From a virus (lineage: Duplodnaviria > Heunggongvirae > Uroviricota > Caudoviricetes): a stretch of 64,000 bases of DNA. The stretch is from IMG/VR virus record IMGVR_UViG_2721755712_000001. The stretch is one strand, 5' to 3'. Made by a program: the position numbers and the translations under genes. This document shows positions 890-55,250 of the stretch, in pieces (position 1 is the stretch's first letter; every line of letters starts with the position of its first letter). Under the pieces are notes generated by a model. That model did no database searches. It saw nothing but the letters and a program-made list of their open reading frames with translations, and was not told where the DNA came from.

Positions 890-1166
890 TTCAACGCTGA
901 TGATCCTCATTTCTACAATAACGAAGACGGTGTAAGCCTGAGTGGATAGATTTGTAGGATTGTACAAGTTGAATAAATTAGCATGGTAAGGCCATGCTAA
1001 TTAAATCGACACAACGGCCAGTTTATTCCATAAAAGTGAATTGCCCATTGTGGCGAAATGCGGGGTTGCCGCATGAATAGTCAAAGGCAGAAGCTAACTG
1101 CCGGCATGGCAAAACAAAGTGCGTAAGAGGAGTGACTTCCTCAACAAGCGCCATAATTCTTTATAA

Positions 1167-4711: not shown

Positions 4712-4895
4712 GTGTTTTTACCTTTATGGTTTTTTTGATTTTGTCATTGGGGAAGCCTACGAACTTCCCATACATCGAAATCGCAACTTCTTTTGCTGAT
4801 TGGTGACAATCGGGCTTGTCTGGACATACCAGACAAGCCTTACCAGTTTCAGAAGCAGCGATAAGAGAGCCGAAACATCCTTTACGCACGATCAA
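4686..4895 (-). CDS. small Cys-rich protein, possible zinc ribbon
   Basis: 69-aa ORF overlapping the polymerase start; C-x2-C...C-x4-C spacing; coupled between CobS-like and polymerase genes. Confidence 0.35.
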   Translation of the reverse strand: MIVRKGCFGSLIAASETGKACLVCPDKPDCHQSAKEVAISMYGKFVGFPNDKIKKTIKVKTHESTDGSN

Positions 4896-6127
4896 CCAAA
4901 TATTTTTTGAACAACTTCACGAGCCGCTTGTGCAGAAGCTGAAGGGAGTTTGTTAATGAAAGAACGCTCAATACCTGTCACAAAGTCGCCTCGCATCATT
5001 CCAATCTTGGCCGACAACAAAAGTTCACGAGGGCCAATTGGCTGACTGATAAGGTGCTCTTCGTATCCATCGCGAACGATACCGGCAAACTTAACCATCT
5101 TTTCTGCGTATTCATCCACGATACCGGCATTTATCAACATGTTGATCTCTGCCTCTTTGCTCATGTATTTCACATTCGAAACGATGCCAAAACGCGAAAA
5201 GTTCGCGGCGTTCTGGATGTTTGTACCCTGGTACAAGCCGGTTTCATCACCAGATCCGTTCGTGTTGCCAGTGCCAATGAAAGCAAACCGTTCATGCGGA
5301 GTAATGCGACGCCATTCTGGAGTCGCCTCTTTGATGACCAACGCTTCACCTTCCAGCACTGGCTGATACACGCCAAGAATCTGTGGAAACGCAAAGTCGT
5401 ATTCATCCGCGAGGTAAACCCAGCCATGCTTCATTGCGAGCGCAAGCAAGCCAGGCTCGAAATACGTAGAGCCATCACGCGCCAGAATTTGCCCCGTAAC
5501 ATGTGCCTCTTCCATTGATGCTGTATGTTGGGCACGGATCAACGGACGATTGAGCAAAGCACATAGTTGTGTAGGCAATGACGATTTGCCTGTTCCTGCA
5601 TGACCCCACAAATAGCCAGGTATGCCAAGTTCAAGCATCATGAAAATGTCTTTGATCAGTTCGAAGTCGCCATATACGTAGCCCTTCTTCACTTCTGGAA
5701 CGAACTCTGGAAACGGCGTATTGACGTTGACGCTAACCATGAGCGGCGTCCCACGTTTTGTTCCGAGTTCTTTCACCGTTACATTTAGCAGTTCGTGAGC
5801 TGCGACCAGATCTGTCTTGTACTCAACTGTGCCTGTGTAGCCTGGGCTACTGGTCACGCCAGATGATTTGGCCATTTCGCTTTTTTGCTCGGCACGTTTA
5901 GCTTGAATTGCATCAAGTGCCTTTTTCGATAGCGTTGGCTCATCTGGAAACTGTGTTGTGTACATTTTCAGTACGGTGTCAGGATCGGCATCTTTTACTG
6001 ACTCAGGAATGCCCTCGCAATTACCATTGGCTACATGGGACTTAAAATAGTGAAATGATTTTCCGCACCACTTGCAAACAAGGTAATCAGAAGGATTTTT
6101 TTCATTTTGCAGTGCAGTAGTAGTCAT
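4892..6127 (-). CDS. AAA+ ATPase, CobS/MoxR-like, with N-terminal Cys cluster
   Basis: Walker A GHAGTGKS, Walker B VYLADEYD; N-terminal CKWCGKSFHY...C motif; paired with a downstream vWA protein as in CobS/CobT pairs. Confidence 0.65.
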   Translation of the reverse strand: MTTTALQNEKNPSDYLVCKWCGKSFHYFKSHVANGNCEGIPESVKDADPDTVLKMYTTQFPDEPTLSKKALDAIQAKRAEQKSEMAKSSGVTSSPGYTGTVEYKTDLVAAHELLNVTVKELGTKRGTPLMVSVNVNTPFPEFVPEVKKGYVYGDFELIKDIFMMLELGIPGYLWGHAGTGKSSLPTQLCALLNRPLIRAQHTASMEEAHVTGQILARDGSTYFEPGLLALAMKHGWVYLADEYDFAFPQILGVYQPVLEGEALVIKEATPEWRRITPHERFAFIGTGNTNGSGDETGLYQGTNIQNAANFSRFGIVSNVKYMSKEAEINMLINAGIVDEYAEKMVKFAGIVRDGYEEHLISQPIGPRELLLSAKIGMMRGDFVTGIERSFINKLPSASAQAAREVVQKIFG

Positions 6128-6222
6128 GCGTTTTTCCTTTGTTTTCTAATGAGCGTTCAACTTCTTATATAAATATATCATTATCTATCGTAAGTGGTTA
6201 CTTATCGTTAAGGCTGTTTTGT

Positions 6223-8331
6223 TCACTTTAAAATGATACGAGATAGTTCAGTAACTACAGATGAACCAAGACTATCAACGCTCGTTACCAGGGCATGATT
6301 TGAGTAAAATCTCTCCGGTGCGTCAGTCATGATGCCAATTGCCATCAAATCAATGTCAGTCTGCGTTTCAATTTGCTTCGCAACCGAACGCAAATGAGCG
6401 TCAAAACCTCTCCCAACAGCCCACGGCTCGCCATCGCTCAGAACAAGCATGATCTTCCTGTCCTCCATGCGACCGGAAAATAACGATGCAAGGCTGGCTA
6501 TGCTTTCACCATCCACGTTATTAAGAAGTGGGAATGTGTAGCCTACGCACCCCATACGTGAGCGAACTTCGCGAGAATTTACCTTTTCATTCCAATTTTT
6601 GATGATAGGTAGCATTAAAGATTCAAAGCGAGAGAACTCATACTTGACAGCCTTAAGTTCTCCTGCCGCCATATGACTACCAAATGTAGTGAAGCCTGTG
6701 ATAATGTTGGGAACATTTATTCGATCAAGGGCATCGGCGATGGTATATGCACTTGCAAGAGCCAATTGTATCGTTATACCCCTCATTGAACCTGATAAAT
6801 CAATCACTTGTTGAACACAGGCGTTAACGGCTTTAGATTCTTCTTTTTTACGAAACACGCGATCATCATTCATTGCTAATCTGTAGATACTAGAACCATG
6901 AATGCGCCCCCGACGCTGGCCCGGTATAAACTGAACTCTGTTTCTGCTTGCTATTGCTCGCTCCAGGTCTTTTGCCAGCGTCGACGAAACACCTGACGAA
7001 AGATGCTTTTCAATATATTTGTCGAAGAGCTGGTTGCCTTCAGGAACGATGCGATAGCGGCTGATTGGACATCCTCCTAAATCAATATCGGAGAATGTTT
7101 TAATAAGCCGTTTGATATGGGCTTCTGCCTGATCAATCGAGCCGATGAAGTCGTATGAGCGATTGTATGGCCTGTATTCGCTTTTCGAGCTTTCTGTTAA
7201 CTCGCTTTTAATCGTTTCGGATAGAGCATCTTCTGTCATGCCTCCGACTTCATCTTCTATGCTATCCAGCTCCTCTAAAGCCTCTTCCAGACTCATTTTT
7301 GACGGAGTTGGGATATCTGAAGAGCCGTCTTCTGTCGTTTTTCTTTTTTCGTGGTCAGCGGTTAATGATTCTGACGCCGCGTTATCAGAAGCATCAGAAT
7401 CTGATACCTCTTTATCATTTTCTGTATCATCGAATATTGTTTCTGATGATTCAGATAATTCTGAATCATCACTGTTGTTATTATCATGTTTGTGCTTACT
7501 ATGTGATTCTGATTTGATAGATTTGTGGTTATCTAACGATGAAGATGTCTCATGATCTTCGTTGTCTTCATTGTTTTCTCCAGAGGCATCCGTCTGGTCA
7601 GCGTCTGAAGGATCGGAAGTTTTTCCCGGAGCTGACTCCTTACCATTGCTTTCACTTTCAGTGTCTTTGAGGATCTTAGCTATGGTCGCAGCCACCTTTA
7701 CACAATCCTCGGTGCAAGACATGTTACGCACGGCCACATCGATACCATGTTCTTTTAATAATGAAATTGGTTTCTCAATGACAGGCCAGTATTCATCCAT
7801 GAAATCTACGAACGGTGCTTGGCCATCCCAGGCTCTTACAACCGGACAGAGAAAGAAGTTTAGAAAAAGCGCGCGCTGATCTTTGCCACAATAAGCAATA
7901 GCCTCTGAAGCCTTTGGTTTAAAGACTTTTTCGATTATAAGGCGCTGAGTTGCCATCAGATTACGTCTTGTTCCGTTAAAGACCTGACCCATTTTTCGCT
8001 CGATGAACACGTCTTCTAAGGCATTCCATAGCGACCAGGAAGGAACGCGTCCTTTTTCTCTCATTTTGTTGGACACACGAATATCGGTAAACAAAATGTG
8101 AGCAACCTCATGATCGAGAAATCCGCGCACAGCATTCATCAATGCCGGTGTTGCGTTATCCGGGATTGATGGGATGTTTACGAGAATTGGCTCTCCATCA
8201 TCGTTATAGCGTACATAAGCGTCGTCCCCTCGTTCTGCAACAGGGATGTTTTTACCTGAAAGGAGAGCGACTACTCGTTTTACACTGTCACGGAAGTCCT
8301 GAACCTCTTTGATGGAACGTTTTTTAGACAT
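6223..8331 (-). CDS. CobT-like von Willebrand factor A protein with acidic Ser/Asp/Glu-rich linker
   Basis: C-terminal MIDAS-like motif VIDLSGSM; central low-complexity acidic region; N-terminal HEVAH (HExxH) motif. Confidence 0.6.
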   Translation of the reverse strand: MSKKRSIKEVQDFRDSVKRVVALLSGKNIPVAERGDDAYVRYNDDGEPILVNIPSIPDNATPALMNAVRGFLDHEVAHILFTDIRVSNKMREKGRVPSWSLWNALEDVFIERKMGQVFNGTRRNLMATQRLIIEKVFKPKASEAIAYCGKDQRALFLNFFLCPVVRAWDGQAPFVDFMDEYWPVIEKPISLLKEHGIDVAVRNMSCTEDCVKVAATIAKILKDTESESNGKESAPGKTSDPSDADQTDASGENNEDNEDHETSSSLDNHKSIKSESHSKHKHDNNNSDDSELSESSETIFDDTENDKEVSDSDASDNAASESLTADHEKRKTTEDGSSDIPTPSKMSLEEALEELDSIEDEVGGMTEDALSETIKSELTESSKSEYRPYNRSYDFIGSIDQAEAHIKRLIKTFSDIDLGGCPISRYRIVPEGNQLFDKYIEKHLSSGVSSTLAKDLERAIASRNRVQFIPGQRRGRIHGSSIYRLAMNDDRVFRKKEESKAVNACVQQVIDLSGSMRGITIQLALASAYTIADALDRINVPNIITGFTTFGSHMAAGELKAVKYEFSRFESLMLPIIKNWNEKVNSREVRSRMGCVGYTFPLLNNVDGESIASLASLFSGRMEDRKIMLVLSDGEPWAVGRGFDAHLRSVAKQIETQTDIDLMAIGIMTDAPERFYSNHALVTSVDSLGSSVVTELSRIILK

Positions 8332-13590: not shown

Positions 13591-13666
13591 TGGTGCCGGT
13601 TAACGGACTTGAACCGCTGGCCATTCGCTTACAAAGCGACTGCTCTACCAACTGAGCTAAACCGGC
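13591..13666 (-). tRNA. tRNA-Thr (anticodon UGU)
   Basis: acceptor GCCGGTT/AACCGGC, D-arm GCTCAGTTGGTAGAGC, anticodon loop UUUGUAA, T-loop GGTTCAAGTCC, encoded CCA. Confidence 0.75.
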
Positions 13667-13670
13667 AATT

Positions 13671-13757
13671 TGGTGGGGAGTGATGGAGTCGAACCACCCG
13701 AGTCGCCATGACAGTAGATTTACAGTCTACACCGCTACCTCTACGGACTAACTCCCC
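13671..13757 (-). tRNA. tRNA-Tyr (anticodon GUA), long variable arm
   Basis: acceptor GGGGAGT/ACTCCCC, anticodon stem GTAGA/TCTAC with loop CUGUAAA, T-loop GGTTCGACTCC, encoded CCA. Confidence 0.8.
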
Positions 13758-13762
13758 TAAAT

Positions 13763-13837
13763 TGGCGATGGTGGGTGGATTCGAACCACCGACCAGTTGG
13801 TTAACAGCCAACTGCTCTACCGCTGAGCTACACCATC
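13763..13837 (-). tRNA. tRNA-Asn (anticodon GUU)
   Basis: acceptor GATGGTG/CACCATC, D-arm GCTCAGCGGTAGAGC, anticodon stem GTTGG/CCAAC with loop CUGUUAA, T-loop GGTTCGAATCC, encoded CCA. Confidence 0.8.
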
Positions 13838-20782: not shown

Positions 20783-23071
<2,289 letters not shown>

Positions 23072-23491
23072 CCGTCGTGCAGCTGCGGAAAGAACGGTGG
23101 AGATAAAGTAGTCGTATGAGCAGCAATAGCGGTCAGCAAACTGGCGTGCTTTCCATAGAGACGTTTTATTGGCAGTCGACAACTCCTGATAAGGCAGGCG
23201 TTTTAACCCGGTGGTGAACGGAGCTGTTTCAAAGTGTTCGCGACCGTGCGTCAGCATGATATTTGAGTACTGACGTTTGTATGCCTCCGTAAAAAGACAG
23301 GTGGCCATGAGAGGATGCATGTCGCGGTAATCAAACCACTTCGTCTCGAAGAGTTCAGCCTCATCTTTACAGCGCGACAAACCAATGTTTTCAGCAACCC
23401 ACTTGTCCATAACAGCGGTATTCCACTCTGTCATGAAGTCGTACTGGTTGTTGTCGATGGTATCGAAAAAGATTTGGCTCATGTGGCTCAC
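23072..23491 (-). pseudogene. N-terminal fragment of the phage gene interrupted by the IS element
   Basis: ORF 23015..23491 continues into the IS right end before stopping; first 140 codons are phage-derived. Confidence 0.6.
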
Positions 23492-23597
23492 CTGGTAGGT
23501 AGTTACTTACTTATCACGATGAGCGGATGATAGCGACTGGTGGCAGTTTTTGGAAGTGGAAACGGAAGGGAGTTGTTCTGGTGGTGTCTTTTAAAAG

Positions 23598-23652
23598 ACC
23601 TGCTTCCGTATATATTTAATAAGTTACTTATTATTTATATATACAGAAGCAG
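23598..23652. repeat. 55-bp near-palindromic element, copy 1
   Basis: CCTGCTTCCGTATATATTTAATAAGTTACTTATTATTTATATATACAGAAGCAGG, identical to 54905..54959; sits in the divergent region between the interrupted gene and the GIY-YIG gene. Confidence 0.9.
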
Positions 23653-23764
23653 GCATAACTTGTCGTCTTAGACGCCCAGAAGCTCTACACTTTGAGCCTG
23701 TTAAATTGATTAAAAACTTATGTGTAAAATAGAACGCATTAGTCAGTAGCAAAGAGATGCAATA

Positions 23765-24532
23765 ATGGACGATTTATCGGTATACGCGAGATCATTGGAT
23801 AAGGCTAAATACTATGTTTACTGCCTCTATGATACAGAAGACAAGATGAAAAGACCGTTTTACATAGGAAAAGGCAAATCGACTCGTTGTCTCGATCACA
23901 TCAAGTATCCCGATGACTCTCCCAAATCCATGCGGATCAAAGAACTTTTGGCTAATAAAAAATTAGGCATAGATATTCTTCGTCATGGTATGGATGAAAC
24001 CACAGCCAAACTTGTTGAGGCGACATGCATCGACCTTATGGGGGTCGGAGAGCTTACGAATAAGGTACGAGGAAGTGGTTCCATGATGGGCAGAATATCA
24101 CTGGACGCCTACCATCACTTAGTGCTGCAAGAGGAAACTGAAATTGCTCCTGAGCACGCCGGTCTTGCCTTCCTGCTAAACAGCACCTACAAGTCAGGAA
24201 TGTCCGCTCTGGCATTATATGAAGCTACGCGTGGCGTATGGGCAAAGGTTCCAAGAGACGAGAATCTCAAATATGCCTACGCTACATATGGTGGGCTAAT
24301 AATGGAAGTTTATCAGATTGAATGCTGGGTCAAAGCCGGTTCTCAGCAGTACTTTACAAGGGATATAGCTCTTGGCCCCGACACAAAACGTTATGAATTT
24401 GTTGGCAGAATAGCCGATGAGCATATTAGAAAACTGTATGTAGGCAAATTAATCAAGAAGCCACCAAGCTACGGTAGCCCTTTTGTGAAGGTTGGGGTGG
24501 TTAGGACTGAACATAGTGTTAGCGCGGCATAA
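23765..24532 (+). CDS. GIY-YIG nuclease-domain protein with uncharacterised C-terminal region
   Basis: N-terminal YYVYCLY...PFYIGKGK...R...H matches the GIY-YIG catalytic motif; about 150 C-terminal residues without a recognisable motif. Confidence 0.6.
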   Translation: MDDLSVYARSLDKAKYYVYCLYDTEDKMKRPFYIGKGKSTRCLDHIKYPDDSPKSMRIKELLANKKLGIDILRHGMDETTAKLVEATCIDLMGVGELTNKVRGSGSMMGRISLDAYHHLVLQEETEIAPEHAGLAFLLNSTYKSGMSALALYEATRGVWAKVPRDENLKYAYATYGGLIMEVYQIECWVKAGSQQYFTRDIALGPDTKRYEFVGRIADEHIRKLYVGKLIKKPPSYGSPFVKVGVVRTEHSVSAA

Positions 24533-24547
24533 AGCTGACACTGTAGT

Positions 24548-24580
24548 TATGCATTGGCGCAATGTACGCGCCAATGCATA
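24548..24580. terminator. bidirectional hairpin terminator
   Basis: perfect inverted repeat TATGCATTGGCGC-AATGTA-GCGCCAATGCATA followed by ATTTTTAA, between convergent GIY-YIG and partition genes. Confidence 0.7.
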
Positions 24581-24584
24581 ATTT

Positions 24585-24944
24585 TTAACCTTTCTTCATC
24601 AACTCTCGTTTGATTTCATCGGTACGCATCGTGACATCGGCAGCGGTGATCGCCTCATTCAATTTCACGATGTCCTCGATTTCCTGCGGTGACTTCTCTG
24701 CCAGATGGAAAATGGCTGCTCGAATCACGTCAGAACGAGTGAACTTCTCGAAGCGAGGGATGAACTTCATCATCTCCAGCAGTTCGAAGTATTCGTCCTC
24801 CAGTGACATTGTGCGGCTTTTAATTTTCTCTTTGCCACGAGTCGGGCGTCCCTGTGGTCTGACTGGTTGGCGCAAAGGAGTTGTGTTCTTAGCCGGTGCA
24901 TCAGGCTCTTTGCGCTTTGCTAGGTCACCCATTTTCATGGACAT
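24585..24944 (-). CDS. partition centromere-binding protein, ribbon-helix-helix (ParG-like)
   Basis: 119 aa; basic disordered N-terminus then C-terminal RHH-like segment; stop/start overlap with the parA-like gene. Confidence 0.5.
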   Translation of the reverse strand: MSMKMGDLAKRKEPDAPAKNTTPLRQPVRPQGRPTRGKEKIKSRTMSLEDEYFELLEMMKFIPRFEKFTRSDVIRAAIFHLAEKSPQEIEDIVKLNEAITAADVTMRTDEIKRELMKKG

Positions 24945-25612
24945 TATTCTTCTTCCTCCAGACTCAACAGATAATCTACAAATTCTTCAAACTCGGCTTC
25001 CGCCTTTTTGTCGCGCTCGCTACCGGTCATTTCAAAGATAGAACGACCAGACTCTTCCGCATCATCATAGACGTTGCGGTTATATAGATTGACTGGCGCA
25101 GACTCGATTCCAAACGTCTCAACAATCTCTTTAGCCGCCAGAATGCGAGACACTTGTGATGGCAAAGCCGGGCACTGGTTCATGACCGCGCGGACCTTCA
25201 CTTTATCGTTTACATTGCGAACATTGTCGATAATAGGATCGATGTCACGTAAAGATTTCAAATCACGACGCTTAGGACGCAGCGGGATAATGATAACGTC
25301 AGCCATCAGCATCGCTTGTCGCTGAATTTCGGAGTCGAAGCCACCAGCATCTACCACTACAAACTCAGCTCTACCCTGAAGCGATTTTAGGTGCTTAATG
25401 ATGTCATCCTGAACGTATGCAAAAGGAATCAGCTCAAGGTCTTCGTTCTGTCGACGGTCTTCACACCAGCTCGTTGTCGTGCGCTGAATATCTATATCGG
25501 TAATATAAACCTTCTTCTTCTTTTTGACTTTCAGGCAAACGGCAATTTGCTGGGCAACGGTGGATTTGCCAGGCCCGCCCTTTGTGCCGCCAACCACAAA
25601 GATCTTGGTCAT
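24944..25612 (-). CDS. parA: ParA-family partition ATPase (small, type Ib-like)
   Basis: 222 aa; deviant Walker A GGTKGGPGKST near the N-terminus. Confidence 0.8.
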   Translation of the reverse strand: MTKIFVVGGTKGGPGKSTVAQQIAVCLKVKKKKKVYITDIDIQRTTTSWCEDRRQNEDLELIPFAYVQDDIIKHLKSLQGRAEFVVVDAGGFDSEIQRQAMLMADVIIIPLRPKRRDLKSLRDIDPIIDNVRNVNDKVKVRAVMNQCPALPSQVSRILAAKEIVETFGIESAPVNLYNRNVYDDAEESGRSIFEMTGSERDKKAEAEFEEFVDYLLSLEEEE

Positions 25613-31300: not shown

Positions 31301-32411
31301 ATTCTGCACGGTTTTCCGACGCTTTCGCGTTCGTTTCGGATGTCTTCGCTGCGGAAGCAGACCTCGCTGCTGCGCTGGCCTGTTCAGTGGCTTGGCCAGC
31401 CTTCGTTGTGGCTGTTGAAGCAGACGATGCGGCACTTTCTGCCGATTTTCCGGCGGCGGTGGCACTGGCTGAGGCCTGCCCGGCACTTGTTGACGCGGCA
31501 CTGGCAGACGACGCAGCCGCTGTTTTTGAGCCTGCCGCAGCCGAGGCGCTCTGTCCCGCTGCCGTTTCAGAAGACCTGGCGTTCGTCTCGGACGTTTTTG
31601 CCGCCTTCGCGGAATTTCCTGCCGCCGTTGCCGAGGAAGCGGCATTACTGGCGCTCGAGGCTGCGCTCGTTTCTGATGATTTCGCTGCCTCTTTTGAGGC
31701 CGCCGCATCCCGGGCTGAGGTGGCAGCTTCTGACGCCTTCGTGGTCGCGGTGGATGCAGAAGTGGCTGCAGATTTTTGTGACGCTGCAGCATTCGTTTCA
31801 GATTTTTTCGCAGCAGTTGCACTCGCACTTGCGGCACTTTGTGAGGATGCCGCAGCGGATGCACTTTGAGACGCTTGAGAGGCTTTTTCTCCAGCGGCAT
31901 TGGCGCTTTTTGCTGCTGCGGCAGCACTGGCCGCCGCCTCACGAGCTTTGTCGCCAGCAGCATCAATCGCGTCAGTGTTATTTTTATACCACTCAACGTT
32001 TTCGTTGTGCTCGTTGACGATCTGCATTAGCGGCTTAACGGTCACTTCTGTACCGTCTTCACGCTCGATTGTCACCTCATCCAGCGCAGTCAACCAACTG
32101 CGTATGGACTTGGAATCAGCCGACATACGCGACATTAGCGCAGTAAAGCGCGCGCTAAACTGTGTTAAGTCGCCTTCATAGGTCGTAATGATTCGGCACG
32201 GAACCTCAGACTGAGTTTCGCCGGTATAAGGTTCTGAGAGAACAATATTCGTATCGCTTATTACGCGCTTGATCTCGTACAGCTTATTGTCGGGGCCAAT
32301 GACGATCATCCCCGGCAACACACCATTAGCTGTTACGTTCCAGGCTGTCCCTGCCCCAACCAGAGTATTGCTACCCTGTGTAAATGTGATAGTACCTTCC
32401 CTGTACCACAT
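28383..32411 (-). CDS. tail fibre protein with Ala/Ser-rich region and repeated fibre motifs
   Basis: 1342 aa; about 300-aa Ala/Ser/Thr low-complexity tract; at least five copies of ...NTTGNAATATKLQTAR.IGGV.FDGSANINLPGVN... Confidence 0.8.
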   Translation of the reverse strand: MWYREGTITFTQGSNTLVGAGTAWNVTANGVLPGMIVIGPDNKLYEIKRVISDTNIVLSEPYTGETQSEVPCRIITTYEGDLTQFSARFTALMSRMSADSKSIRSWLTALDEVTIEREDGTEVTVKPLMQIVNEHNENVEWYKNNTDAIDAAGDKAREAAASAAAAAKSANAAGEKASQASQSASAAASSQSAASASATAAKKSETNAAASQKSAATSASTATTKASEAATSARDAAASKEAAKSSETSAASSASNAASSATAAGNSAKAAKTSETNARSSETAAGQSASAAAGSKTAAASSASAASTSAGQASASATAAGKSAESAASSASTATTKAGQATEQASAAARSASAAKTSETNAKASENRAESSKTAAASSASSAASSASSASASKDEATRQASAAKGSATTASTKATEAAGSATAASQSKTAAESAATRAEAAADRAEEIAGAVAMEDASLTTKGVVKLSSAVDSTSESLAATPKAVKAANDNANSRVPSNRKVNGKALTADITLTPKDIGTLNSVTMSFSGGAGWFKLATVTMPQASSIVYIALIGGAGYNVGSPHQAGISELVLRAGNGNPKGITGALWKRTAVGLANFAWINTSGDTYDIYVEIGNYATSVNIHWDCTANASVSIYTSPTYSASKPSSVTDGVVYTMYSTHQKPTPLDIGALPTTGGTVSGPLSVTGGITGTLNGNASTATKLQTARSIGGVGFDGSANINLPGVNTTGNQNTTGNAATATKLQTARTIGGVSFDGTANINLPGVNTAGNQSTTGNAATATKLQTARTINGVKFDGSADITLTPANLDVYSKSEIDNKKGMRKYTFSAPANAVSGKWYPIVFRRSRGSTDELASRVVITTGSSVGGYAMNNCEFNGFVMPGGWSDRGSYAAGFFSIYSTAERAIHSIISSVKDDDLCSVFYVEARAFPIKIFAEEGLNVIVPTADYAVGQTTYKWGATDPLSESTNAQIILDFKNGRGYYCSHPFISSLSGNAATATKLQTARTIGGVAFDGSANINLPGVNTAGNQNTTGNAATATKLQTARNINGVKFDGSGDININTLVSRGRVTALSGSTQGTAGIQMYEAYSTSYPTTYGNVLHMKGASAAGEGELLIGWSGTSGAHAPVFIRSRRDTTDAAWSAWAQVYTSRDSIPGVNATGNQNTTGNAATATKLQTARKIAGVAFDGSADITLTAANLNAYTKTEVTNLLSSYVKSSALPSMTVRTSSISGGDMGMSLSTFISHLKSNGAFSKRYWIGFGDAMGFNAGSINNITGFGAVELAESIIEVFNLPNGDYTIRLTTSHKADYGGVTNAILVYHYRSNRSPSGQWLKFAGTVGATSN

Positions 32412-32504
32412 GTTGAATATGCTCCTTGATTTGGCGGGCTATCCTTGCCCGCCATTAAGTAATTACTTACCTATTCTTACCGATATAAAATTTTTTTTCC
32501 ACCA

Positions 32505-35500
32505 TCACAGACGGCCAATTCTTACTCGTAAGACGTTGTTATCGTCATAAACGTCAATCCGCTGACCATTTATAACCAATCGCCCATTGCCGCCGCTATT
32601 ACCGTTGATCTCAAGCGTTCCATTTTTGCCGAACCGCCATCCAGATCTACCGCTAACAAAATTGGTAGATTGCAGATCGCCTACTTTTGCATTGGTGATT
32701 GTGCCATCCTTGATATACGCTCCATTCATATAGGCGATACTGTTTTCGATAACAAATGGCGTTGTGATCTTCCCGTTAACAGAGTTGACCAAACCAAACC
32801 TGTCCGCCTGAACCAAAAACTGAGATAGCCCAGTGGTGTCAATACCAAGCGCAATACCGGCAACATACTTCTGCCCTCCGCTCGTTGAAGTCTCCATTTT
32901 CAACGTCCACGCGGTTGATACTTTTTTGTTGGTATCAGCAATAGCTGTTGCCTGCTGTTGAATTGTCGCGGTATTTCCATCCACCTCTGCTTTCAGAGTA
33001 TCGATTCGCCCACTCAGAGCATTATCTGCCTGCGTTCTCGCTGTCGTTTCAGTTGTTACCGCCGCGGAAATGTTGGCTGCCGTTTGAGACTCTAAGTTTG
33101 TGATTTGAGTCGCCAGTGCCGCATCTTGCTCTGTACGCGTTTTCGTTTCGGTTGCTACAGCCGCTTTAATATCCTCTTTGTATTGAGAGGTCAGCTTGGT
33201 GATCTGAGACGACAACGCCGAGTCAGCATCAGTTCGAGCCTGCGTTTCAACTGCAACGGCCGCACTAATATCTTTCGCAGTCTGTGCTTTTAAACTTGAA
33301 ACCTCTTTTGTTAAAGCGGTATCACCATCTGCACGAGCCGTTGTTTCTCTGGCAAGAGATGCCTCAAGATCATTAGCTTTTGCTGTAAGAGACGTAATCT
33401 GAGTGGACAATGCACTATCGGCATCAGTCCTTGCTTTTGTCTCTACAGCAACCGCTGCGGCAATATCAGTTCCGGTTTGTGCTCGCAGGCTGTTAATTTC
33501 TCGTGAGAGCGCCTGGTCAGCACTTGCTCTGGCCTCCTGCTCCTGAGTGATGGCAGCGGATATATCACCGTCAACCTTTGACTGAAGCTGGTTTATTTGT
33601 TTGGCTAACGCAGAGTCCCCGCTTGCTCGGGCCTCCTGCTCACTACGTATTGCAGCAGAAATATCATCATCAACCTTTGCCTGAAGTTGGGTGATCTGGC
33701 TTGCCAGAGCCGAATCTTCCGTTGCTCGGGCTTCTTGCTCTTCCTTAATAGCTGCGACGATATCGTTGCTTACTTTCGACTCAAGCTGAGTGATCTGTGT
33801 CGTCAGAGCTTCATCGGCAGATGTACGAGCCTCCTGCTCTGTACTAATCGCCGCGCTGATATCTCCTTCAAACTTAGATTGCAGCTGAGTGACACGCTTT
33901 GCCAACGCTTCATCGCCATCGGCACGAGCGGTGGACTCTTCCAGAATACTGGCCTTAATGTCTTCGCCAATTTCTACGCGAATTTCCTCAACCTTCGTGG
34001 CCATTGCAGACATATCATCAGCAAAGGTTTTCTGTGTTGTTGCGATCTTCGCGTTATTGACCATCTGCTTGTGCTGGTCTTCATCTTGACGAAGAGCCAG
34101 GTCAATATTTGTTTTGGCCAACGCCTCAATGTTCGTAGTCAGTTCTGCACTGGCACGATCGACCTCTGCAACCGTCTTTTTCATTTCTTCAACGGCAGCG
34201 GAGCTTTCCTCTACCGTTGACTGCAACACTTCCAGTTGTTTAGCGTTTGCAGCATCGCCTTCAACACGAGCCTCGCTTTCCTTAGCAATAAGAGCCGCCG
34301 CTTCATCTCTTGCAGCCTTTATTGCCTCGACTGTATTAGCGAGAGCTTTATCGTGTTCAGATACGGTGTTTTCGATTTCAACAATTGCAGCATCAGTAGC
34401 ATCAATTTTTTCAAACGCTTCATTGACCTTGTCGATCGTTGCCGAAACCTCACCTTTAAGCTCGGTTTGTGCGTTCTCCAAAGCATCGCTACGCTCGTTG
34501 AATTTTATTTCAAAATCCGCGAGGTTATCGCTGAACTGCTTATCTAATTCAGCTATATCTTCCTTAACGTCGTTTACCGACCCCTCCAAAGATTCGACGC
34601 TCTGGTTGATATGCTCATTTAACTCGTCAACTGCTTCTTGAGAGGCTTTGCTGTTGATGTCCTCAAGCAGAGCCTGACCAAGCTCGGAAGATGTAATTTT
34701 GCCAGTCAGGAACGACAGTACATCGCGAGTTGTCGCCTCTGTACCCAAGTTTGAGTTCGGAGGACTTAACATACCTCGCTTGTTCGATGCTCGAACCCAG
34801 TAATACCACGTTTCGCTATCCCCAAGACCAGCATGTGTAAAGGTGGTGCTTGCAGACTCTGCGATCAGTTTCGCCGTATCCAGATTGTTGGTCTGGGATG
34901 CGTAAACATTAATGTGATCAAGGTCCACCGAATCTGGATTAACCCAATTCAGTATCACATTACGATAGTCTCCAACGGCCGTTAATGACGTTGGTGCATC
35001 CGGCGGTGTCATTGTGCCCAGCACCTGATAAACGGTACTGATAATTTCTGTTTTTTTACCGTTGAATGAAACCGCATACAGTTGGAAGTCGTAGCGTCCA
35101 TTCTCCGCGACATTAACGATTTCGTATTGCTCTTCGGTTACACGCGCCGATTGCCAGTTCGATACATTGTTTTCATCAGAACGTCGCCAACTGATCCAAT
35201 ACTCTGGAGATTTCCCTTCCCATGTTGCAGTCAGTTTTACTGACAGGTTGCCAGGGCTTGAGAGATAAGTCCCTTCGGTGATTTGCAAATTAGACGGCTT
35301 GGAGTAAGTCGGGTCCAATACCGTCGTATTTTGCGGGATAAGCGTTGCACCATTGTCGATCGCCTCATATTTAGACGGATTGTTCTCAACAGCGGTGATG
35401 TCAAAGCTACCCGGCGTTTCCCCCTGCGCGATGTTAACGATGCGAACGCGCATAGGTTCGAGGTCTGGTTCTGTAATAGTCCAGACGCCGTTCAAAACAG

Positions 35501-37843: not shown

Positions 37844-38655
37844 GTCTCATCTCCCTTGAGCAAGTCTCTGTGACGCAAGTGATGCGTCGTATGTTTCTGA
37901 TACATTCCGCCGTAATAAGCACGACAACTAAGGCGGTCGATCTGGTGATGAAGAATCATTCCATCGCCGATATAAACCGCGCAGTGGTCAGGCATTTTCC
38001 CGTATTGGATAAAGAAGATGTCCCCACGTTGAGGCTCTGTTCCGGGCGCAAGACGCACCAATCCCTCGTTACGGTAGTTCTGATCGAGAATGTCGTTATC
38101 GCCGGTGTACCACGATGGAATATGCAGGTGTGCGTTCGGGTTTAGTTCGACGTTAAACTCACGCTTCAAATAGTCCCGACACAACATCCAGCAATCGAAT
38201 ACGCCAAATACATACGGTCTGCCCAGGTATGGCATTTCGAAACCATCAGGTGTGATCACATTCATCTCGCTAAAATGGAAAGGGGCATCTCCCTCAACAT
38301 TCTTGCGAATAGCCAGAATCATCCACGGAACTTCCGTCGCTTCGCAGCCTGCACGATCGGCATCAGATGCTTCTGCTGATTCATCAGTATGTGAATGCCA
38401 GATTGCGATAACATCACCCGCATCCTCTGCCGCCATAATGTCGTCAACGTGCATTACAAAAGTGTTCTGCGGGTTCTCCGAAACATTCCGCGCTTCCATA
38501 AAGCGATATTTGTCGCCATTAGTTCTAACCAGAAAGCCACACGCTTCATTAGGGTAGCGATTTATGGCGCAGAGATAGATTTGCTGCATAACGTCAGAGC
38601 CAAGCTCAGGGATTGCTTTATTACCCATACCGCGTAGCTCCAATAAATCCGCCAA
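37831..38655 (-). CDS. K: tail tip assembly protein, lambda K-like (JAMM/MPN plus NlpC/P60)
   Basis: 274 aa; JAMM-like motif AIWHSHTDESAEASDAD and a C-terminal Cys/His cell-wall hydrolase-like half. Confidence 0.8.
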   Translation of the reverse strand: MADLLELRGMGNKAIPELGSDVMQQIYLCAINRYPNEACGFLVRTNGDKYRFMEARNVSENPQNTFVMHVDDIMAAEDAGDVIAIWHSHTDESAEASDADRAGCEATEVPWMILAIRKNVEGDAPFHFSEMNVITPDGFEMPYLGRPYVFGVFDCWMLCRDYLKREFNVELNPNAHLHIPSWYTGDNDILDQNYRNEGLVRLAPGTEPQRGDIFFIQYGKMPDHCAVYIGDGMILHHQIDRLSCRAYYGGMYQKHTTHHLRHRDLLKGDETCLS

Positions 38656-39352
38656 AATGGATCACACCGTCGGCAAAATAATTCCGACGCGCATTACAGG
38701 CGTCATAACGTTTTGTGCAGTAATCCGCACCAGACATAGACGTCTGCTGGTTATTTTTGTCGAAATATGGACCGGTATAGCCGCATTCTGGCCCTCGGTA
38801 TTTCCACGGGCAGGTGTTTTTAATGATCTGACGATACGGCAGTTGCACCCCCATCAAATCGAACACACTAGACAATTCAAACTCGACAACCTGATGAGTT
38901 TCGAGAGTTTTCTGTTCGATAAACCACATTTCATCCGGGAAATGTTGGTTTGGATCTGCTGTTGGGTTGCCGTCTTTAAAATTAACGGCATCGAGGAAGC
39001 GAGCCAGCGTCATCTTGCGAATAATGCGGCAGCCAACAAGATCGTCGTTTGCCTGAACTTCCGCAGAGACAGTTCCGGCAAAGTTCGATACCTGAATTTT
39101 TGGACGTGGCAACGTTCCCTGGCCAGTTTTGTCAAAGCCTGATGCTTTGATTGGCCACGGCTCGTATGTCACTCCTTGCCAGACGACCGGTTGCATCAGT
39201 TCGTTTGTTCCGGCGTGGAAGAATAGCTTCCCCCCTGAAGTTGTGTTCGACATATCCAGTACGAACAACTCAATGAGTGCAGAGGGAGATAAGCTCTGAA
39301 TATCAGCTTTAATTCCCATTGTTTCATCCTTGAAATAAGTAGGCGCTAACAT
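38621..39352 (-). CDS. L: minor tail protein, lambda L-like
   Basis: 243 aa; motifs ARFLDAVNF and CGYTGP plus C-terminal Cys cluster matching lambda gpL. Confidence 0.85.
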   Translation of the reverse strand: MLAPTYFKDETMGIKADIQSLSPSALIELFVLDMSNTTSGGKLFFHAGTNELMQPVVWQGVTYEPWPIKASGFDKTGQGTLPRPKIQVSNFAGTVSAEVQANDDLVGCRIIRKMTLARFLDAVNFKDGNPTADPNQHFPDEMWFIEQKTLETHQVVEFELSSVFDLMGVQLPYRQIIKNTCPWKYRGPECGYTGPYFDKNNQQTSMSGADYCTKRYDACNARRNYFADGVIHFGGFIGATRYG

Positions 39353-39779: not shown

Positions 39780-42700
39780 TTAGTTACGTTGAGTGTTTGG
39801 GTTGAGTGATCCGCCAGGGCGTTTCTCTTGAGCGATAGTCTCAAGCGCGATTGCTTTCATCCGTTGAGCGGCATTGTTCCATATGCTTTCTGTATCGCCG
39901 GATTCAGTTGTGCTACCGTCACTATGGACGTTGATCTCAATTGATACCGGAGAAAGAACATTTCCTCCTCCACTCATACCATCGGTACTGAGCGTTACAG
40001 GGATTGTTCGACCATCAGGCAATGGAACATACGCCTCATTCATATCGCCTTCCCCAAACAACGCCAATTGAGGTGAGTTGGCGATACCGCCTTTCTGGTA
40101 TGCCCGGAGCGGGATCACGCCGTCTTTTCCGAATATGCCACCATTTGCAAACTTCGGAATTGCAGGAATACCATTCGTGCCATCGGCAGCAGAACTGGTC
40201 AGATTGTTGAACCCGGAAGTTGAACCAGAAGAACCGGACATCAATCCATCGAATCCACCACTAGCCCATACTGAAACCAAACCAGATGCAACTGTCGCGC
40301 CGAAATTCAACCACTTATTACCAGAGCCGGAAGCATTAGCTCCAAGCATTGCAAACGCGGCAGACAGCGCGCCGGTAACAGAACTGAGGTTCTGCATCGA
40401 GAAGATGGAGTCCTTCACGGCTTTTGTCTCGGCATCTTTGGCTTCAGTGCTATCAAATAGCCCTGATACCCAGCTACCAATCGCATTTGTTGCAGTGCCA
40501 ATTGCGCTGGTGGTCTGCTGTGTTGTTTGCCCCAATCCAGTTACCGAACTGGACGTCTCCTTCGTGGCTTCTCCTACCGACTTGTCGCCATTAACAGTGT
40601 TGCTTATGCGCACACCTTGATTGGCAACTGCGGAAGCAACCCCGGTGAGCAAATTACCACTCTGTGAACTACCAGCTGCGGTGGCTCCCATCCCCAACAT
40701 GTTCATTAGAGGCAGCGTGATTTGCGACTTCACGACCATATTGGTGATATCTTTCAAAATGGACTGAGACAGGCTGGAGAAGCTCATCTTCCCGTTAATA
40801 ACGAAATCAGTCAGGACATCAGTTAAGCCACTAAACAAATCAGTCCAGGTGCTTTCGATCTGCTCTGCCAGGTTTTCGTATTCCAGTGCCAACTTCTGCG
40901 TCGCAGTCCCCGTCTCTTTAATAAGCGCGGTATTGCCAGCAGCAATCAGTTGATTGATTTTCTTTGTATAAAGCGCCACAACTTTAGGATCAGACGCCTT
41001 ATCACGAAGTTCTATCAACGCTTTGAGATTGCGGTTGTAGGTGTCTTCGAAATCAGCAACTTTATCTTCGCGAGACGGCGTATAGCCAGCACTAATAATG
41101 GAATCCGCCTTCGGTGCCCAAGTGGAGATCATCTGCTCAACATTGCGGCGATTAAACATCTCGCGATATTCAGGTGTCGCATTTTTGAGGTCTTCAAGAC
41201 GTTTTTTCGCCTTGTCGATCATCTCTTGAGTGATGAACTCGTTAGGAACCGCATTAGCCAAATCTGTCAGCGATTTCGTTGTATCGCGAAGAGACTGATC
41301 AAACGATACCGTAGCCTTAGAGCTTTCACCCATTTGCCCCATAAGCTGATCGGCTTTGTCCAGAGCCTTCTGGTATCCGGCTGCCAGTTTCTGTTGCGCT
41401 GCCTGTTCCTTCTTGGCCGCACGCTGCGAGGCGTTAGCTGATCGTTGGGCTGCTTTCTCGGCAGCTGCTGCATCCTGTTCACGAGCTTTAGTCAGTGCAG
41501 CAATGGCTGCGGCACGCTCTTCATCGCTCATTTTCTCCAGAGAGCTGGCGCTGGATGCTTTCTGCAAATTAAGCTGCGTCTTGAGTTGTTTAGGCCCAAT
41601 AATCGGCTTACCTTCGAAGTCCATCATCGGAGTGCCGTCAGGCAAAGTACGTTGATAAGTCGCAGAATCCATCTGGTTTCGCATATATTGCGCCAGCGCC
41701 TTCTGAGCAGCTTTATCAGTTGTACCTAACCCAAGAACATCTCCATTGATTGACACTAAGCCATTACCACTTTTGGCCGCGTTATCCCTCTTAAACTCTG
41801 CCTGAGTCAGTTCCTGAGCAACGACTTCCAAATGCTCCTGATAGCCACGAATACTTCCTTGCAGTTTCTGAATCTGCTCGGTATTTCCTTCCTTTTTCGC
41901 TTTTTCAAGCTGATCATTAAGAGTCGCGATTTGCTTCTCGGTCGCATTCTTACGAGAAGAAAGTGAATCAACCAGTTTTTGCGCAGGCTCCAGATAGCTT
42001 TTGTTTACCGTTTCACGTAACGGTGCCAATAGCTTGTTCTTTTCGTCATCCGAAAGTGAACCGTCATCCTTGATTTTCTGGATTTTCTCCAGAGCCTCCT
42101 GACGAGCTTTCACGAACGTTGCCGCAAAGTCTCTATTCTCTTCGAGTATTTTCTCTATCTGGGATTCTGCCGTCTCTTTTGCCAGACGTTTGGCTACAGC
42201 CAAATCCCCTCTGGCAATAGTTTCATTGGTTTCATCGCGTTTCTTACGAAGTTCATTTAGCTCATTTTCTATTCGCTTACGTTCATCATGATTAATCTTT
42301 ACTGTAGTTCCGGCCATACCCGGCCCATAAACCACCTTTTCGCCAGATTTTAACTCTTGTTCCTTTTGCGTGATTTGTTGCTCAAGACGCGCTTTATACT
42401 CGGCCATCTGTGCACGTTTAGCCGCCGTCATCGCTTCTGGTATTTTCCTAATCTCGTCAACGACCTTTGAAGTTTCGCTACGAAGCATGGTCATATACGT
42501 GATTAAGCCAGCAACAGCGGTCATTGCAGCAGTGAAAACAAAACCTATCGGATTCGCCGCAATAAACGCAGTCAGGCCAGCAAAAGCGCCTTTAAGCCCC
42601 GTAATCGCCCCACGGATGGCGAAAATAAGAGAGGGGATCGGAGCCAGCCCCATACGTGCCGCACGATTGAATCGGGTTACTGCTGTAGCGCCGAGGTTAA

Positions 42701-52898: not shown

Positions 52899-54155
52899 CT
52901 ATCGAGAACCACCAAGAATAACACGGTTTTTGACTGGATACCTACGATGTACTGGATAGCCCAATGCGTCTGCACTATGCTCAATGCCACCTGTCTTATC
53001 CATATCTCGTGTTCCAGGCTTGTAGATGACTTTTTCCAGTGAATCAATCAAATGCTTGCACTTCGGATCGATATACAGCCGGATATCTCCAGATGCGGTC
53101 ATCAGCATTCGGTTAACAGCATTAACACGATCCGCAATTGGCGGGTGCTTTTTCGAATAATCGACACGTAAGAATCCCTTCTCTTTGAATATGTCGACGT
53201 CAGACTCCCCGCGAGCATGTTGGCGATAAGCACCTGCCGGATCTGGAAATACCGTTATCTGTGATTTCCAGCGCCAGAAGCGTCTCTCAAGCTCATCACA
53301 AACCTCTGCCGTGTTAGAGGAAAAGAGCACCAATTCATCAATTGCCCATAGCTCACCATTTGGCTGAGGTTGCAAAATTACGGAAGACATCGGGTCAATG
53401 TTGAAGTCCTGCCCTACCCATATAGGCAACCGAGGGTTGAACTGAAGCGGTTTTACATGCACGTTACGATCAAACGGGTAGTAAACGCGCCCGGACATGT
53501 TCTCAAAGCTGGCCAGGTACTCCTGAGCGAACGATTTGGGGTCCATATCGTTCTTAGCAGCTTCAATTTCCGCCGTAGGTACAAACGGAGAATCGGCAGT
53601 TACAAACTGCCAGCTCTTCCACTGTCCCTTTCTTTGCAGCTCTACGTTCTGGCCTATAGTCCACAGTTTGTGAAATTCCGAGAAGCCTTTTGGCGTACCA
53701 ATGATCAGTGCACCGCCGCGTGTCGATGAAAGAGTAGGTCGTAACACCTTGTACCAGGTGTCAGCCTTCATATCCTGAAATTCATCAAGCACTACAAAAT
53801 GCAACGCTACGCCGCGCAGAGTGTCAGGCTTATCAGCACCTTTGAGGGCGATCTCCGAACCGTTCTTCAACACGATTGTCATCGTGGTGTCGTTCTTTTT
53901 CCTAACCCACTTACGAGGCAGAACTTCCTGTAGATCGTCCCACAAAATCTGGCGAGCCATTTGGTAAGTAGGAGCGACATACCAGACCCTTTGCTTTTTT
54001 TCCTTTGCCGCCGCACGAATAATAGTGGAGATCGACAACCGGGATTTTCCCCAGCGTCGACCAGCACAAACAACTTTAAATCGATGCGGAGACTGGAAGA
54101 CTTTCATCTGTCCAGAATGCAGTTGCACAAGACTGAGCGAGGACGGGATTGCCAT
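52899..54155 (-). CDS. terminase large subunit
   Basis: 418 aa; Walker A-like VVCAGRRWGKS, Walker B HFVVLDEF, and an acidic C-terminal nuclease-like half. Confidence 0.8.
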   Translation of the reverse strand: MAIPSSLSLVQLHSGQMKVFQSPHRFKVVCAGRRWGKSRLSISTIIRAAAKEKKQRVWYVAPTYQMARQILWDDLQEVLPRKWVRKKNDTTMTIVLKNGSEIALKGADKPDTLRGVALHFVVLDEFQDMKADTWYKVLRPTLSSTRGGALIIGTPKGFSEFHKLWTIGQNVELQRKGQWKSWQFVTADSPFVPTAEIEAAKNDMDPKSFAQEYLASFENMSGRVYYPFDRNVHVKPLQFNPRLPIWVGQDFNIDPMSSVILQPQPNGELWAIDELVLFSSNTAEVCDELERRFWRWKSQITVFPDPAGAYRQHARGESDVDIFKEKGFLRVDYSKKHPPIADRVNAVNRMLMTASGDIRLYIDPKCKHLIDSLEKVIYKPGTRDMDKTGGIEHSADALGYPVHRRYPVKNRVILGGSR

Positions 54156-54787
54156 TATTCGTCCTCCTCTTCACTTCCATCATCTGTCGCATCAAATTCG
54201 CTTAGAGCTTCTTCTTCCAACGTCTCAAGCAATTCGTCATCGATGATTTCAGGCTCGTCGTCTTCCTGACGTAATTTCGCCACCTGGGAAGGCGTAAGCT
54301 CACCAAATACCAGGTTCGGAATTTCTTCCTCGTCATTTTCCGCATGATCCATGCCCAATGCTTTGGACGAAACTTCAAAGCATTTTGCAAGGGTATTACT
54401 GGCTCTCTGTAAGCTCTTGAGAGAATCCTCAATCGCCCCTAAAGGCTTACCCTCACGTTTGGCCGTAGTGACTTCGACCATCACCATCTGCCCCAACGCA
54501 TACGCCCAGCCGTCATAACGTGTACGACGTTCTTCTATCTTTTCCGCACGGGCTTTAGCGCGAAGCTCTGCGTCAGATTTAAGAGACTCACGAACCATCT
54601 TCCCAACAGAGTCCGCACCTTTCTCTAATCCTCGCTTTTTGAAATGTCTGGAGAGTGTTTCACGACGAATGCCGTACTCTTCCTCCAGCTTTGAGAGTGT
54701 ATATTCGCCTGACGTCCATTTGGCTTCAGCTTCGGCCCACTCCGCTGGTGTCAGGCGAGTTTTTACCTCGTCTTTTTCGACCGTCAT
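54155..54787 (-). CDS. terminase small subunit
   Basis: 210 aa; N-terminal HTH-like LSKLEEEYGIRRETLSRHFKKRGL, acidic C-terminal tail; overlaps the large subunit start. Confidence 0.55.
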   Translation of the reverse strand: MTVEKDEVKTRLTPAEWAEAEAKWTSGEYTLSKLEEEYGIRRETLSRHFKKRGLEKGADSVGKMVRESLKSDAELRAKARAEKIEERRTRYDGWAYALGQMVMVEVTTAKREGKPLGAIEDSLKSLQRASNTLAKCFEVSSKALGMDHAENDEEEIPNLVFGELTPSQVAKLRQEDDEPEIIDDELLETLEEEALSEFDATDDGSEEEDE

Positions 54788-54904
54788 AGATCCCTCTAAA
54801 ACACACAGAGCGCGTCCATGCGCTCTAAAACAACTTGTTTACTGAATCTGCTAACCAACTTGTTTTCTGGGGTGTTTAATTAGGTCTGGGCATGTCTTAT
54901 TAAG

Positions 54905-54959
54905 CCTGCTTCCGTATATATTTAATAAGTTACTTATTATTTATATATACAGAAGCAGG
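54905..54959. repeat. 55-bp near-palindromic element, copy 2
   Basis: identical to 23598..23652; about 120 bp upstream of the small terminase start. Confidence 0.9.
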
Positions 54960-54983
54960 TCTTTAAATAAGCTCCCAGACCGA

Positions 54984-55250
54984 TTACATCACCAGTAACT
55001 TCGCTTTGGCTCGACCTAAAGTGGTTAACCCAAGAGTTCGGCGGTGATAGCGATTGTCACTGCGTTGGCGCGTATGCCCTTTCTCCACCAGCCCCTTTTT
55101 TATCAGAGCGCGAATTGAGAACTGGATACTTTGCTTGGTTGTCTTGTACGGCAAAACTTCAAGCAATTCGTCCAGATCAAGTAAATGACCTCGCTCATAA
55201 CCGAGATTGAGCGTTTTGATGATGTCCTTTTGTTTATCGGTTAACGTCAT
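54984..55250 (-). CDS. small DNA-binding protein (winged-helix-like)
   Basis: 88-aa basic protein ending the upstream operon; helix-turn-helix-like core TTKQSIQFSIRALIKKGLVEKG. Confidence 0.4.
   Translation of the reverse strand: MTLTDKQKDIIKTLNLGYERGHLLDLDELLEVLPYKTTKQSIQFSIRALIKKGLVEKGHTRQRSDNRYHRRTLGLTTLGRAKAKLLVM

Follow-up and report, generated by a model that had tools for sequence, protein, structure and literature searches.

A 55-bp imperfect palindrome occurs twice in a 64,000-nucleotide stretch of tailed-phage DNA (IMG/VR record IMGVR_UViG_2721755712_000001), which we analysed as a whole and refer to as the window. The window comes from an E. coli SSU5-like phage-plasmid. It is ~98–99% identical to Escherichia phages CMS-2020a, PhiR41_1 and Cyrano (= pLF82), is also related to Salmonella phage SSU5 and to Klebsiella phage-plasmids, and carries nearly all of its genes on the minus strand. 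The 55-mer, CCTGCTTCCGTATATATTTAATAAGTTACTTATTATTTATATATACAGAAGCAGG, is found exactly two times, at 23599–23653 (copy 1) and 54905–54959 (copy 2), both on the plus strand and 31,306 bp apart. An earlier note on this DNA had described the repeat; its account of the identity, the palindromic form and the position of copy 2 holds, while copy 1 had been placed one base too low.

Two palindromes at gene-block borders

Both copies sit between genes, and their neighbours are those that the earlier note had named. Copy 1, the replication-side palindrome, lies between an open reading frame (ORF) with a GIY-YIG nuclease domain (23765..24532, plus strand; Pfam PF22945, E = 5.5e-7) and a gene interrupted by the insertion sequence IS100. 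The interrupted gene encodes a phrog_2500 protein and is the first of a minus-strand replication operon that continues with a DnaB-like helicase and a primase. The sense-strand 3' end of copy 1 is 116 nt from the ATG of this gene at 23482, and the divergent GIY-YIG ORF starts 111 nt from its other side. Flank comparison by tblastx places copy 1 at 33.5 kb in SSU5, ahead of the operon for phrog_2500, helicase and primase. Copy 2, the terS-proximal palindrome, lies 24 nt past the stop codon of a minus-strand ORF of 88 amino acids (aa; phrog_900; 54984..55250), whose Cyrano homologue is annotated as a DNA-binding-domain protein. It ends 117 nt before the ATG, at 54787, of the putative small terminase gene terS (phrog_867, 'DNA binding domain'; 54155..54787, minus strand), annotated as terminase small subunit in Cyrano and followed by terL (52899–54155).

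The outer 8 bp of the 55-mer (CCTGCTTC/GAAGCAGG) pair perfectly, a C at position 9 stands opposite an A at position 47, and the interior is AT-rich with a one-base offset. The single strand folds well against shuffled sequences both as RNA (−30.8 kcal/mol, z = −7.8) and as DNA (−12.9 kcal/mol, z = −8.1), and hairpin z-scores are strong across palindromic sites generally, at −5 to −10. Identity between the copies stops exactly at the palindrome edges, beyond which the flanks are unrelated. The window holds no further match to the 55-mer at up to 3 mismatches, a level at which 0 of 100 dinucleotide-preserving shuffles gave any, and a search of the window with the arms returned only the four arms of the two copies. 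Rfam 15 assigned no family at threshold to either copy, the only matches being sub-threshold generic miRNA-precursor hairpins.

The hexamer CCCAGA is rare: it occurs 13 times in the window, where ~31 would be expected. Four of these occurrences are no more than 50 bp from the palindromes, inverted on either side. Copy 1 with its flanks spans 23576..23680, from TTCTGG (23576–23581) to CCCAGA (23675–23680). A 14-bp palindrome, GTCTTTTAAAAGAC, abuts copy 1 and supplies a sense-strand T-run (UCUUUU); on the transcribed strand, copy 1 is followed by UCUUUUAAAAG. Only at copy 2 does the symmetry extend to ~100 bp, and further CCCAGA repeats stand there at a spacing of ~20 bp. This extended imperfect palindrome (54883..54981) consists of GGTCTGGG, 14 nt, the 55-mer, 14 nt and CCCAGACC, and its predicted fold reaches −50.6 kcal/mol as RNA (z = −10.3) and −25 kcal/mol as DNA.

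Three syntenic sites in SSU5-like genomes

The earlier note had treated the copies as a pair, but every complete relative carries a third, syntenic copy. The common arms, CCTGCTTCYGTATA...TATACRGAAGCAGG, occur at three syntenic gaps in every SSU5-like genome examined: one precedes terS, one precedes the replication operon and one, outside the window, follows the Dam methylase gene. By synteny, the third site of the window genome is expected ~25 kb beyond the window end. In SSU5, the terS-side palindrome is at the record ends, 26 nt past the stop codon of SSU5_130 and 116 nt before terS. The replication-side palindrome (33458–33513) is 23 nt past a stop codon and 118 nt before SSU5_038, and the third (78304–78360) is 28 nt past the Dam methylase stop codon and 119 nt before the next gene. 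The three are roughly evenly spaced around SSU5, at intervals of 33.5, 44.8 and 25 kb. Cyrano also has all three, the third at ~78086–78140. Across genomes, the sites start 23–28 nt after a co-directional stop codon and end 106–119 nt before the next start codon.

We scanned IMG/VR with one arm and placed the resulting sites by tblastx of their flanks. All 102 palindromic sites map to the three syntenic gaps, and none lies elsewhere. Counts at the three gaps were 31, 34 and 31, after one locus whose flanks gave opposite orientations (L092) had been resolved and 6 sites less than 70 nt from a locus end had been dropped. In a set of terS-upstream regions picked by terS homology alone, and thus unbiased with respect to the arms, the palindrome was present in 47 of 47 distinct regions. 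The element occurs in 258 of 5,426 complete E. coli genomes, at 403 places that are all on plasmids, with none chromosomal and a median of two per genome. A search of 185,579 species-representative genomes returned just seven loci, all SSU5-like. A Yersinia pestis match proved to be an SSU5/pHCM2-like contig and is for that reason of no use as a test of partition. The comparison with related genomes that the earlier note had proposed therefore finds the element kept in all of them, with no sign of mobility. The searchable full-text literature yielded no account of either these palindromes or the ends of the SSU5 genome, and the three-site palindromes appear to be undescribed so far.

What stays constant in the palindrome is CCTGCTTC-Y-GTATA(TA)n in one arm, with the complement in the opposite arm. 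Total length ranges from 52 to 57, and the arm-to-arm spacing varies by 5 bp. The interior is AT-rich and usually has a TAAGTnACTTA core. This core is missing from the E. coli-type third site, which keeps the arms and the (TA)n, so the proposal that the 55-mer is an extended form of a recurrent dyad motif looks weak. Single mismatches of both G.U and C.A kinds are seen. The whole palindrome has flipped without loss of the site between the SSU5-type and E. coli-type replication-side sites, in Cyrano's copy and in one IMG/VR locus (L086), which fits an orientation-independent hairpin.

Identity of the replication-side and terS-side copies at 55 of 55 positions is limited to the window and the genomes of three close IMG/VR relatives; elsewhere they match at 46–52 of 55. 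Because full identity is confined to this sub-lineage, we infer a recent, lineage-limited homogenisation by gene conversion. Of the two explanations that the earlier note had offered for the exact identity, strong selection or recent conversion, the second thus reads correctly. Between the E. coli and SSU5 lineages, the terS-side palindrome itself matches at 52 of 55 positions, while the adjoining intergenic flanks are ~65–70% identical, a figure estimated by hand alignment. This difference argues that the palindrome is under purifying selection.

Analogous palindromes in virulent relatives

Pseudomonas phages nickie and hairong (Nickievirus) have genomes of ~112 kb with genome-wide synteny to SSU5, including the order ParB_N, ParB_N, ABC-ATPase, x, ABC-like, x, gap, terS, terL. 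We take both to be virulent, since they are classified only as phages, have no par or plasmid-replication gene annotated and were isolated as free phages. Folding of their syntenic gaps revealed large palindromes at the three boundaries that correspond to the SSU5 sites, with a sequence that differs from the SSU5 type (nickie, MG018927: ~7197–7262, ~41058–41133 and ~98096–98160; hairong, OM223115: ~6040–6105 and ~38615–38680). One precedes terS and lies 10 nt past a stop codon, another precedes the helicase and the phrog_2500 homologue and lies 7 nt past the PhoH stop codon, and the third is in the early region.

The three nickie palindromes share an arm core, CTTTCCCT/AGGGAAG, and on the strand searched nickie has TTAAC[AT]ACT just two times, each at one of the palindrome sites. 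The replication-side arms show compensated changes between the two phages (CCACTCTTTCCCT...AGGGAAGAGTTGG in nickie versus CCAACCCACCCCT...AGGGGTGGGTTGG in hairong), which implies that structure was kept rather than sequence. The hairong palindrome upstream of terS starts with CCTGCTT, the outer 7-mer of the SSU5-type arm, and both phages have a TATAAT box directly next to the right arm of their palindrome before terS. No large palindrome was found upstream of terS in Stenotrophomonas phage BUCTxx99. As Nickieviruses have palindromes at the same three boundaries, synteny indicates that the three-boundary arrangement is old and not tied to the plasmid lifestyle.

Transcription across the sites

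RNA-seq of the LF82/Cyrano lysogen gives 49.8 for ParA, 89.1 for CYRAN_29 and 54.6 for CYRAN_30, followed by 6.2 for CYRAN_31, with a background of 9.8 (PMC9928086 supplement). CYRAN_31 is the next gene past the replication-side palindrome, which lies in a gap of 193 nt; over this gap, log2 values in the other conditions go from 8.6–10.4 to 2.3–4.2 (PMC9928086). At the terS-side site, from CYRAN_123 to CYRAN_1, the fall is only ~1–1.7 log2 units; both flanks of the third site are silent in the Cyrano lysogen, where all three gene blocks are silent (PMC9928086).

A T-rich tract lies directly 3' of the hairpin on the sense strand at the replication-side site (TCTTTT...) and the third site (CTGTTTT or CTTTTT), and it is kept across lineages where adjacent bases diverge. 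The idea that the copies stand at operon heads is therefore half of the picture. They are ~116–117 nt upstream of the first replication and packaging genes but are equally operon tails, given their start 23–28 nt after a stop codon, the T-run at two of the three site types and the transcript drop at the replication-side site.

Our leading interpretation, which we put forward tentatively, is that the three palindromes are operon-boundary terminator/insulator hairpins. They would act as punctuation that splits three co-directional blocks: packaging, structure, lysis and par; replication and nucleotide metabolism; and early or regulatory genes. On the sense strand (minus in the window), a long GC-clamped, AT-rich hairpin would form directly past the final gene of each block. 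At the replication-side site (the copy 1 type) and the third site, hairpin and U-run together would act as an intrinsic terminator or insulator, so that plasmid-maintenance transcription, active in lysogeny, would be kept out of the lytic replication genes. We infer that the palindrome itself causes termination, and that it does likewise in this window. Copy 2, without a U-run, probably lets most transcription through. The regulated stop there could instead be a small GC-rich hairpin with a T-run directly upstream of the terS ribosome-binding site (54806..54827, minus strand; terminator-like match TAGAGCGCATGGACGCGCTCTG + TGTGTTTTAG), a candidate attenuator or terminator. Copy 2 may additionally be a processing site of the RNase III type or a DNA-level site. 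Phage nickie has an analogous hairpin and T-run before terS. As a separate observation, a hairpin with a T-run before terS hints that late-gene expression needs antitermination. Downstream of each palindrome the dyads differ by class, with the 20-bp AAGT dyad on the replication side, AACAAGTTG dyads before terS and an TAAAATCGATTTTA dyad before the third block. A shared palindrome with differing dyads fits a shared boundary role combined with separate regulation of each block.

Known intrinsic terminators, including the operon insulators around temperate-phage morons, likewise place a GC-clamped hairpin after a stop codon, and the U-run at two of three site types and the replication-side transcript drop agree with them. 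Their stems, however, measure 5–14 bp, whereas those here measure ~24–40 bp, the same arms recur at three loci and across genera, conserved CCCAGA flanks accompany the palindromes and one site type has no U-run. RNase III processing hairpins lie between the early genes of phage T7. Like these, the palindromes are paralogous long hairpins with internal loops between co-directional genes, and by analogy stems of at least 20 bp would suffice as substrate; unlike them, the palindromes here fold on both strands with no sense-strand bias.

Several observations weigh against terminator/insulator hairpins. The stems, ~24 bp and up to ~40 bp at copy 2, far exceed those of ordinary intrinsic terminators. 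Copy 2 is followed by CUUAAUAAG, and no U-run is present at the terS-side site in any lineage; the Nickievirus palindromes all have no T-run. In the window, copy 1 adjoins the divergent GIY-YIG ORF and not a co-directional upstream gene. The transcript drop is a gene-level measurement from one relative at one of the three sites. Folding gives no consistent advantage to the sense over the antisense strand: the two are equal on average, and G.U versus C.A mismatch counts show no consistent bias. The outer stem is near-invariant and has no compensatory pairs, and position pair 9:47 varies independently (UG 21, CG 12, CA 6, UA 6). Moreover, the arms are near-invariant over three paralogous sites and over the E. 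coli, Salmonella and Klebsiella lineages, while the flanks have diverged by ~30–35%, again a hand-alignment estimate. With such invariance, no compensation in the outer stem and independent change at 9:47, the arm pattern looks like sequence recognition rather than structure alone. The conserved flanking CCCAGA has no role in a simple terminator. A terminator consensus scan called neither palindrome, although the loop and stem limits of the scanner are unsuited to long AT-rich stems.

Alternative explanations

The presence of conserved arms and CCCAGA at all sites and across genera, which termination does not explain, suggests a sequence-specific factor. It is possible, though we think it rather unlikely, that the palindromes and CCCAGA form assembly sites for a conserved DNA-acting phage protein, engaged in multi-site initiation of packaging or of lytic replication, and that the terS-proximal copy is the true virion DNA end. 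The sites would then have been inherited from the common ancestor of SSU5-like phage-plasmids and Nickieviruses, and termination would be a secondary use of the hairpins.

We consider it unlikely that copy 2 is the terminase recognition or cut site (cos or pac), with the other two copies as paralogous secondary or decoy sites. Its place upstream of terS is the usual one for cos or pac, its partial two-fold symmetry extends over ~100 bp with extra CCCAGA repeats at this copy only, and the outer CCTGCTT is common to the SSU5-type arm and the terS-upstream palindrome of the distant phage hairong. The linear SSU5 GenBank record was opened within the terS-side palindrome, between positions 18 and 19, and joining its ends restores the palindrome exactly. 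The Cyrano record starts in the orthologous palindrome, one base from the SSU5 position, but it probably took this start over from the SSU5 record; Cyrano is a plasmid that was annotated anew and compared with SSU5, so only the SSU5 record counts as independent evidence. Record ends can also mislead: an IMG/VR assembly (L059) breaks inside its replication-side copy, so a palindromic contig end can be an assembly artefact, and genome-length IMG/VR contigs end at arbitrary positions. Unlike cos and pac sites, the element is present three times per genome, and cutting at all copies would yield sub-genomic pieces. TerL (418 aa) falls outside the classical cos clade, grouping with the P74-26, T4, T5 and Jersey types and not with the lambda, HK97 and P2 cos types.

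Binding of a phage regulator at the heads of the three operons, whether at master operators such as the earlier note had proposed or at upstream activating sites, strikes us as somewhat more doubtful. The distance to the first start codon is constant at 106–119 nt, and the divergent gene next to copy 1 starts at a similar distance of 111 nt. The arms are conserved without covariation, the three blocks are silent in the lysogen, and the Nickievirus TATAAT box abuts a palindrome arm. Against operators, a consensus scan detected no sigma-70-like promoter beside either copy, and the 5-bp variation in spacing (length 52–57) is awkward for a rigid dimer. In Nickievirus, the outer arms within a genome differ from site to site and covary; a single protein could therefore not recognise all of them. 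Smaller operon-specific dyads lie nearer the start codons and are better candidates, among them a 20-bp dyad of the AAGT type (23495..23514) that closely precedes the start of the replication operon and belongs to a dispersed family.

Three lytic replication origins per genome, with easily melted AT-rich palindromes and CCCAGA as initiator sites, seem improbable. Multiple origins are familiar from T4, and SPP1 has an oriL/oriR pair. The AT-rich core with GC clamps and repeated flanking motifs suits an origin, as do the position of one copy directly upstream of the phrog_2500, helicase and primase genes, the roughly even spacing in SSU5 and the retention of the arrangement in virulent relatives. 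The arms of Nickievirus, however, are not especially AT-rich, and no initiator was found; searches of solved-structure sequences with the phrog_2500 protein, as with the 88-aa protein and TerS, were uninformative.

The linear phage-plasmid N15 has scattered centromere palindromes, and dispersed centromeres of a ParA system, one of the roles that the earlier note had suggested, would place several copies of one palindrome round a plasmid prophage in the same way, some of them beside phage operons. We find this very improbable. One copy does lie ~1–2 kb downstream of parA (24944–25612), and occurrences in E. coli are confined to plasmids. Yet virulent Nickieviruses, in which no par genes are annotated, carry analogous palindromes at the same boundaries, and no SopB-type ParB accompanies the palindromes. 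Because the arrangement is not tied to a plasmid lifestyle, most of the support for partition is gone. Two ParB_N proteins, two ABC-type ATPases and a small protein are encoded directly upstream of terS (55260–58175 in the window; 3383–7187 in nickie). The conservation of this module in virulent Pseudomonas phages identifies it, on comparative grounds, as a core phage module and not a plasmid partition module.

Relics of a small mobile palindrome, akin to miniature inverted-repeat transposable elements or repetitive extragenic palindromes, would be short, palindromic and multi-copy with identity ending exactly at the edges, as here, but are hardly credible given three fixed syntenic positions, the absence of chromosomal copies among the E. 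coli genomes, the confinement to SSU5-like loci among species representatives and flanks with no evident target-site duplications. A protelomerase target (telRL) was rejected on the grounds of three sites per genome and circular related replicons (PhiR41_1 and plasmid NZ_JCATIJ010000003); no protelomerase was present among the features shown for the inspected parts of relatives, and the window genes were not searched for one. We also noted possible resemblances to loxP arms (CTTCGTATA versus CTTCYGTATA), ERIC/IRU repeats and SlmA-binding sites. These were set aside, since recombination between three direct repeats would remove the genome and the elements are built differently.

Other features of the window

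The 5' part of the phrog_2500 gene occupies 23073..23482 on the minus strand and its 3' part runs from 21117 downward, as aligned to the intact PhiR41_1 homologue. IS100, of the IS21 family, interrupts it at 21118–23072 (ORFs at 21204–23005: IstA 21204–22226, IstB 22223–23005). Since the insertion cuts the first gene of the lytic replication operon, the phage-plasmid of the window may be defective for lytic growth.

Homology to Cyrano ends at 23663 and restarts at 24587, around the GIY-YIG ORF. This marks a variable cargo slot between a 119-aa gene downstream of parA and the replication-side palindrome (window 23664–24586; L002 4604–5407; L218 3566–5260; SSU5 31523–33435), one edge of which is at most 10 bp from the palindrome edge. 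The slot holds the reversed GIY-YIG ORF in both the window and PhiR41_1, and CYRAN_30 in Cyrano; an E. coli plasmid has a 565-aa P-loop NTPase there, and SSU5 has three small genes.

Two AACAAGTTG(T/G)TT dyads lie between copy 2 and terS (54824..54868). Dyads of the AACAA(C/G)TTGTT type are found in the window at 20755, 25644, 54824 and 54849, two of them upstream of terS and one (25644) upstream of parA. A matching type is found upstream of terS in the distant phage nickie (L206; 7215–7254), and this recurrence suggests a candidate conserved binding site for a regulator or for TerS. The dispersed 20-bp dyads (consensus about ATAAGTAAGTACTTACTTAT) are at 11990, 14586, 18102, 23495, 32455, 39374, 51376, 52883 and 58175, at gene junctions and often just upstream of start codons, and are candidate phage-repressor operators; their core, GTAAGTACTTAC, resembles what we take to be the SlmA-binding site.

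Elsewhere, an Rfam match to the cspA thermoregulator (187.6 bits; 496–914, plus strand) indicates a cold-shock protein gene with its 5' untranslated region on the phage-plasmid. Three tRNA genes cluster at 13594–13837 on the minus strand (Rfam RF00005). Four tandem 99-nt repeats at 33492–33887, of in-frame length and 62–72% identical to the reference copy, are probably a repeated domain of a large minus-strand structural protein.

Implications

SSU5-like phage-plasmids are common, being present in the 258 complete E. coli genomes counted above and frequent in Klebsiella and Salmonella, and they carry resistance genes. Almost none of the signals that govern SSU5-type regulation, DNA packaging and lytic replication have been mapped. 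An element that stands at three sites, wherever the late, replication and early blocks meet, offers a handle for transcript mapping, and with it a handle on how a plasmid prophage keeps its maintenance genes on and lytic genes a few hundred bases away off. The gap that abuts copy 1 is a natural cargo slot, of use in engineering insulated cargo slots. Should the palindromes instead prove to work at the DNA level, in packaging or as origins, they would supply the cis-acting signals for an entire lineage of phages.

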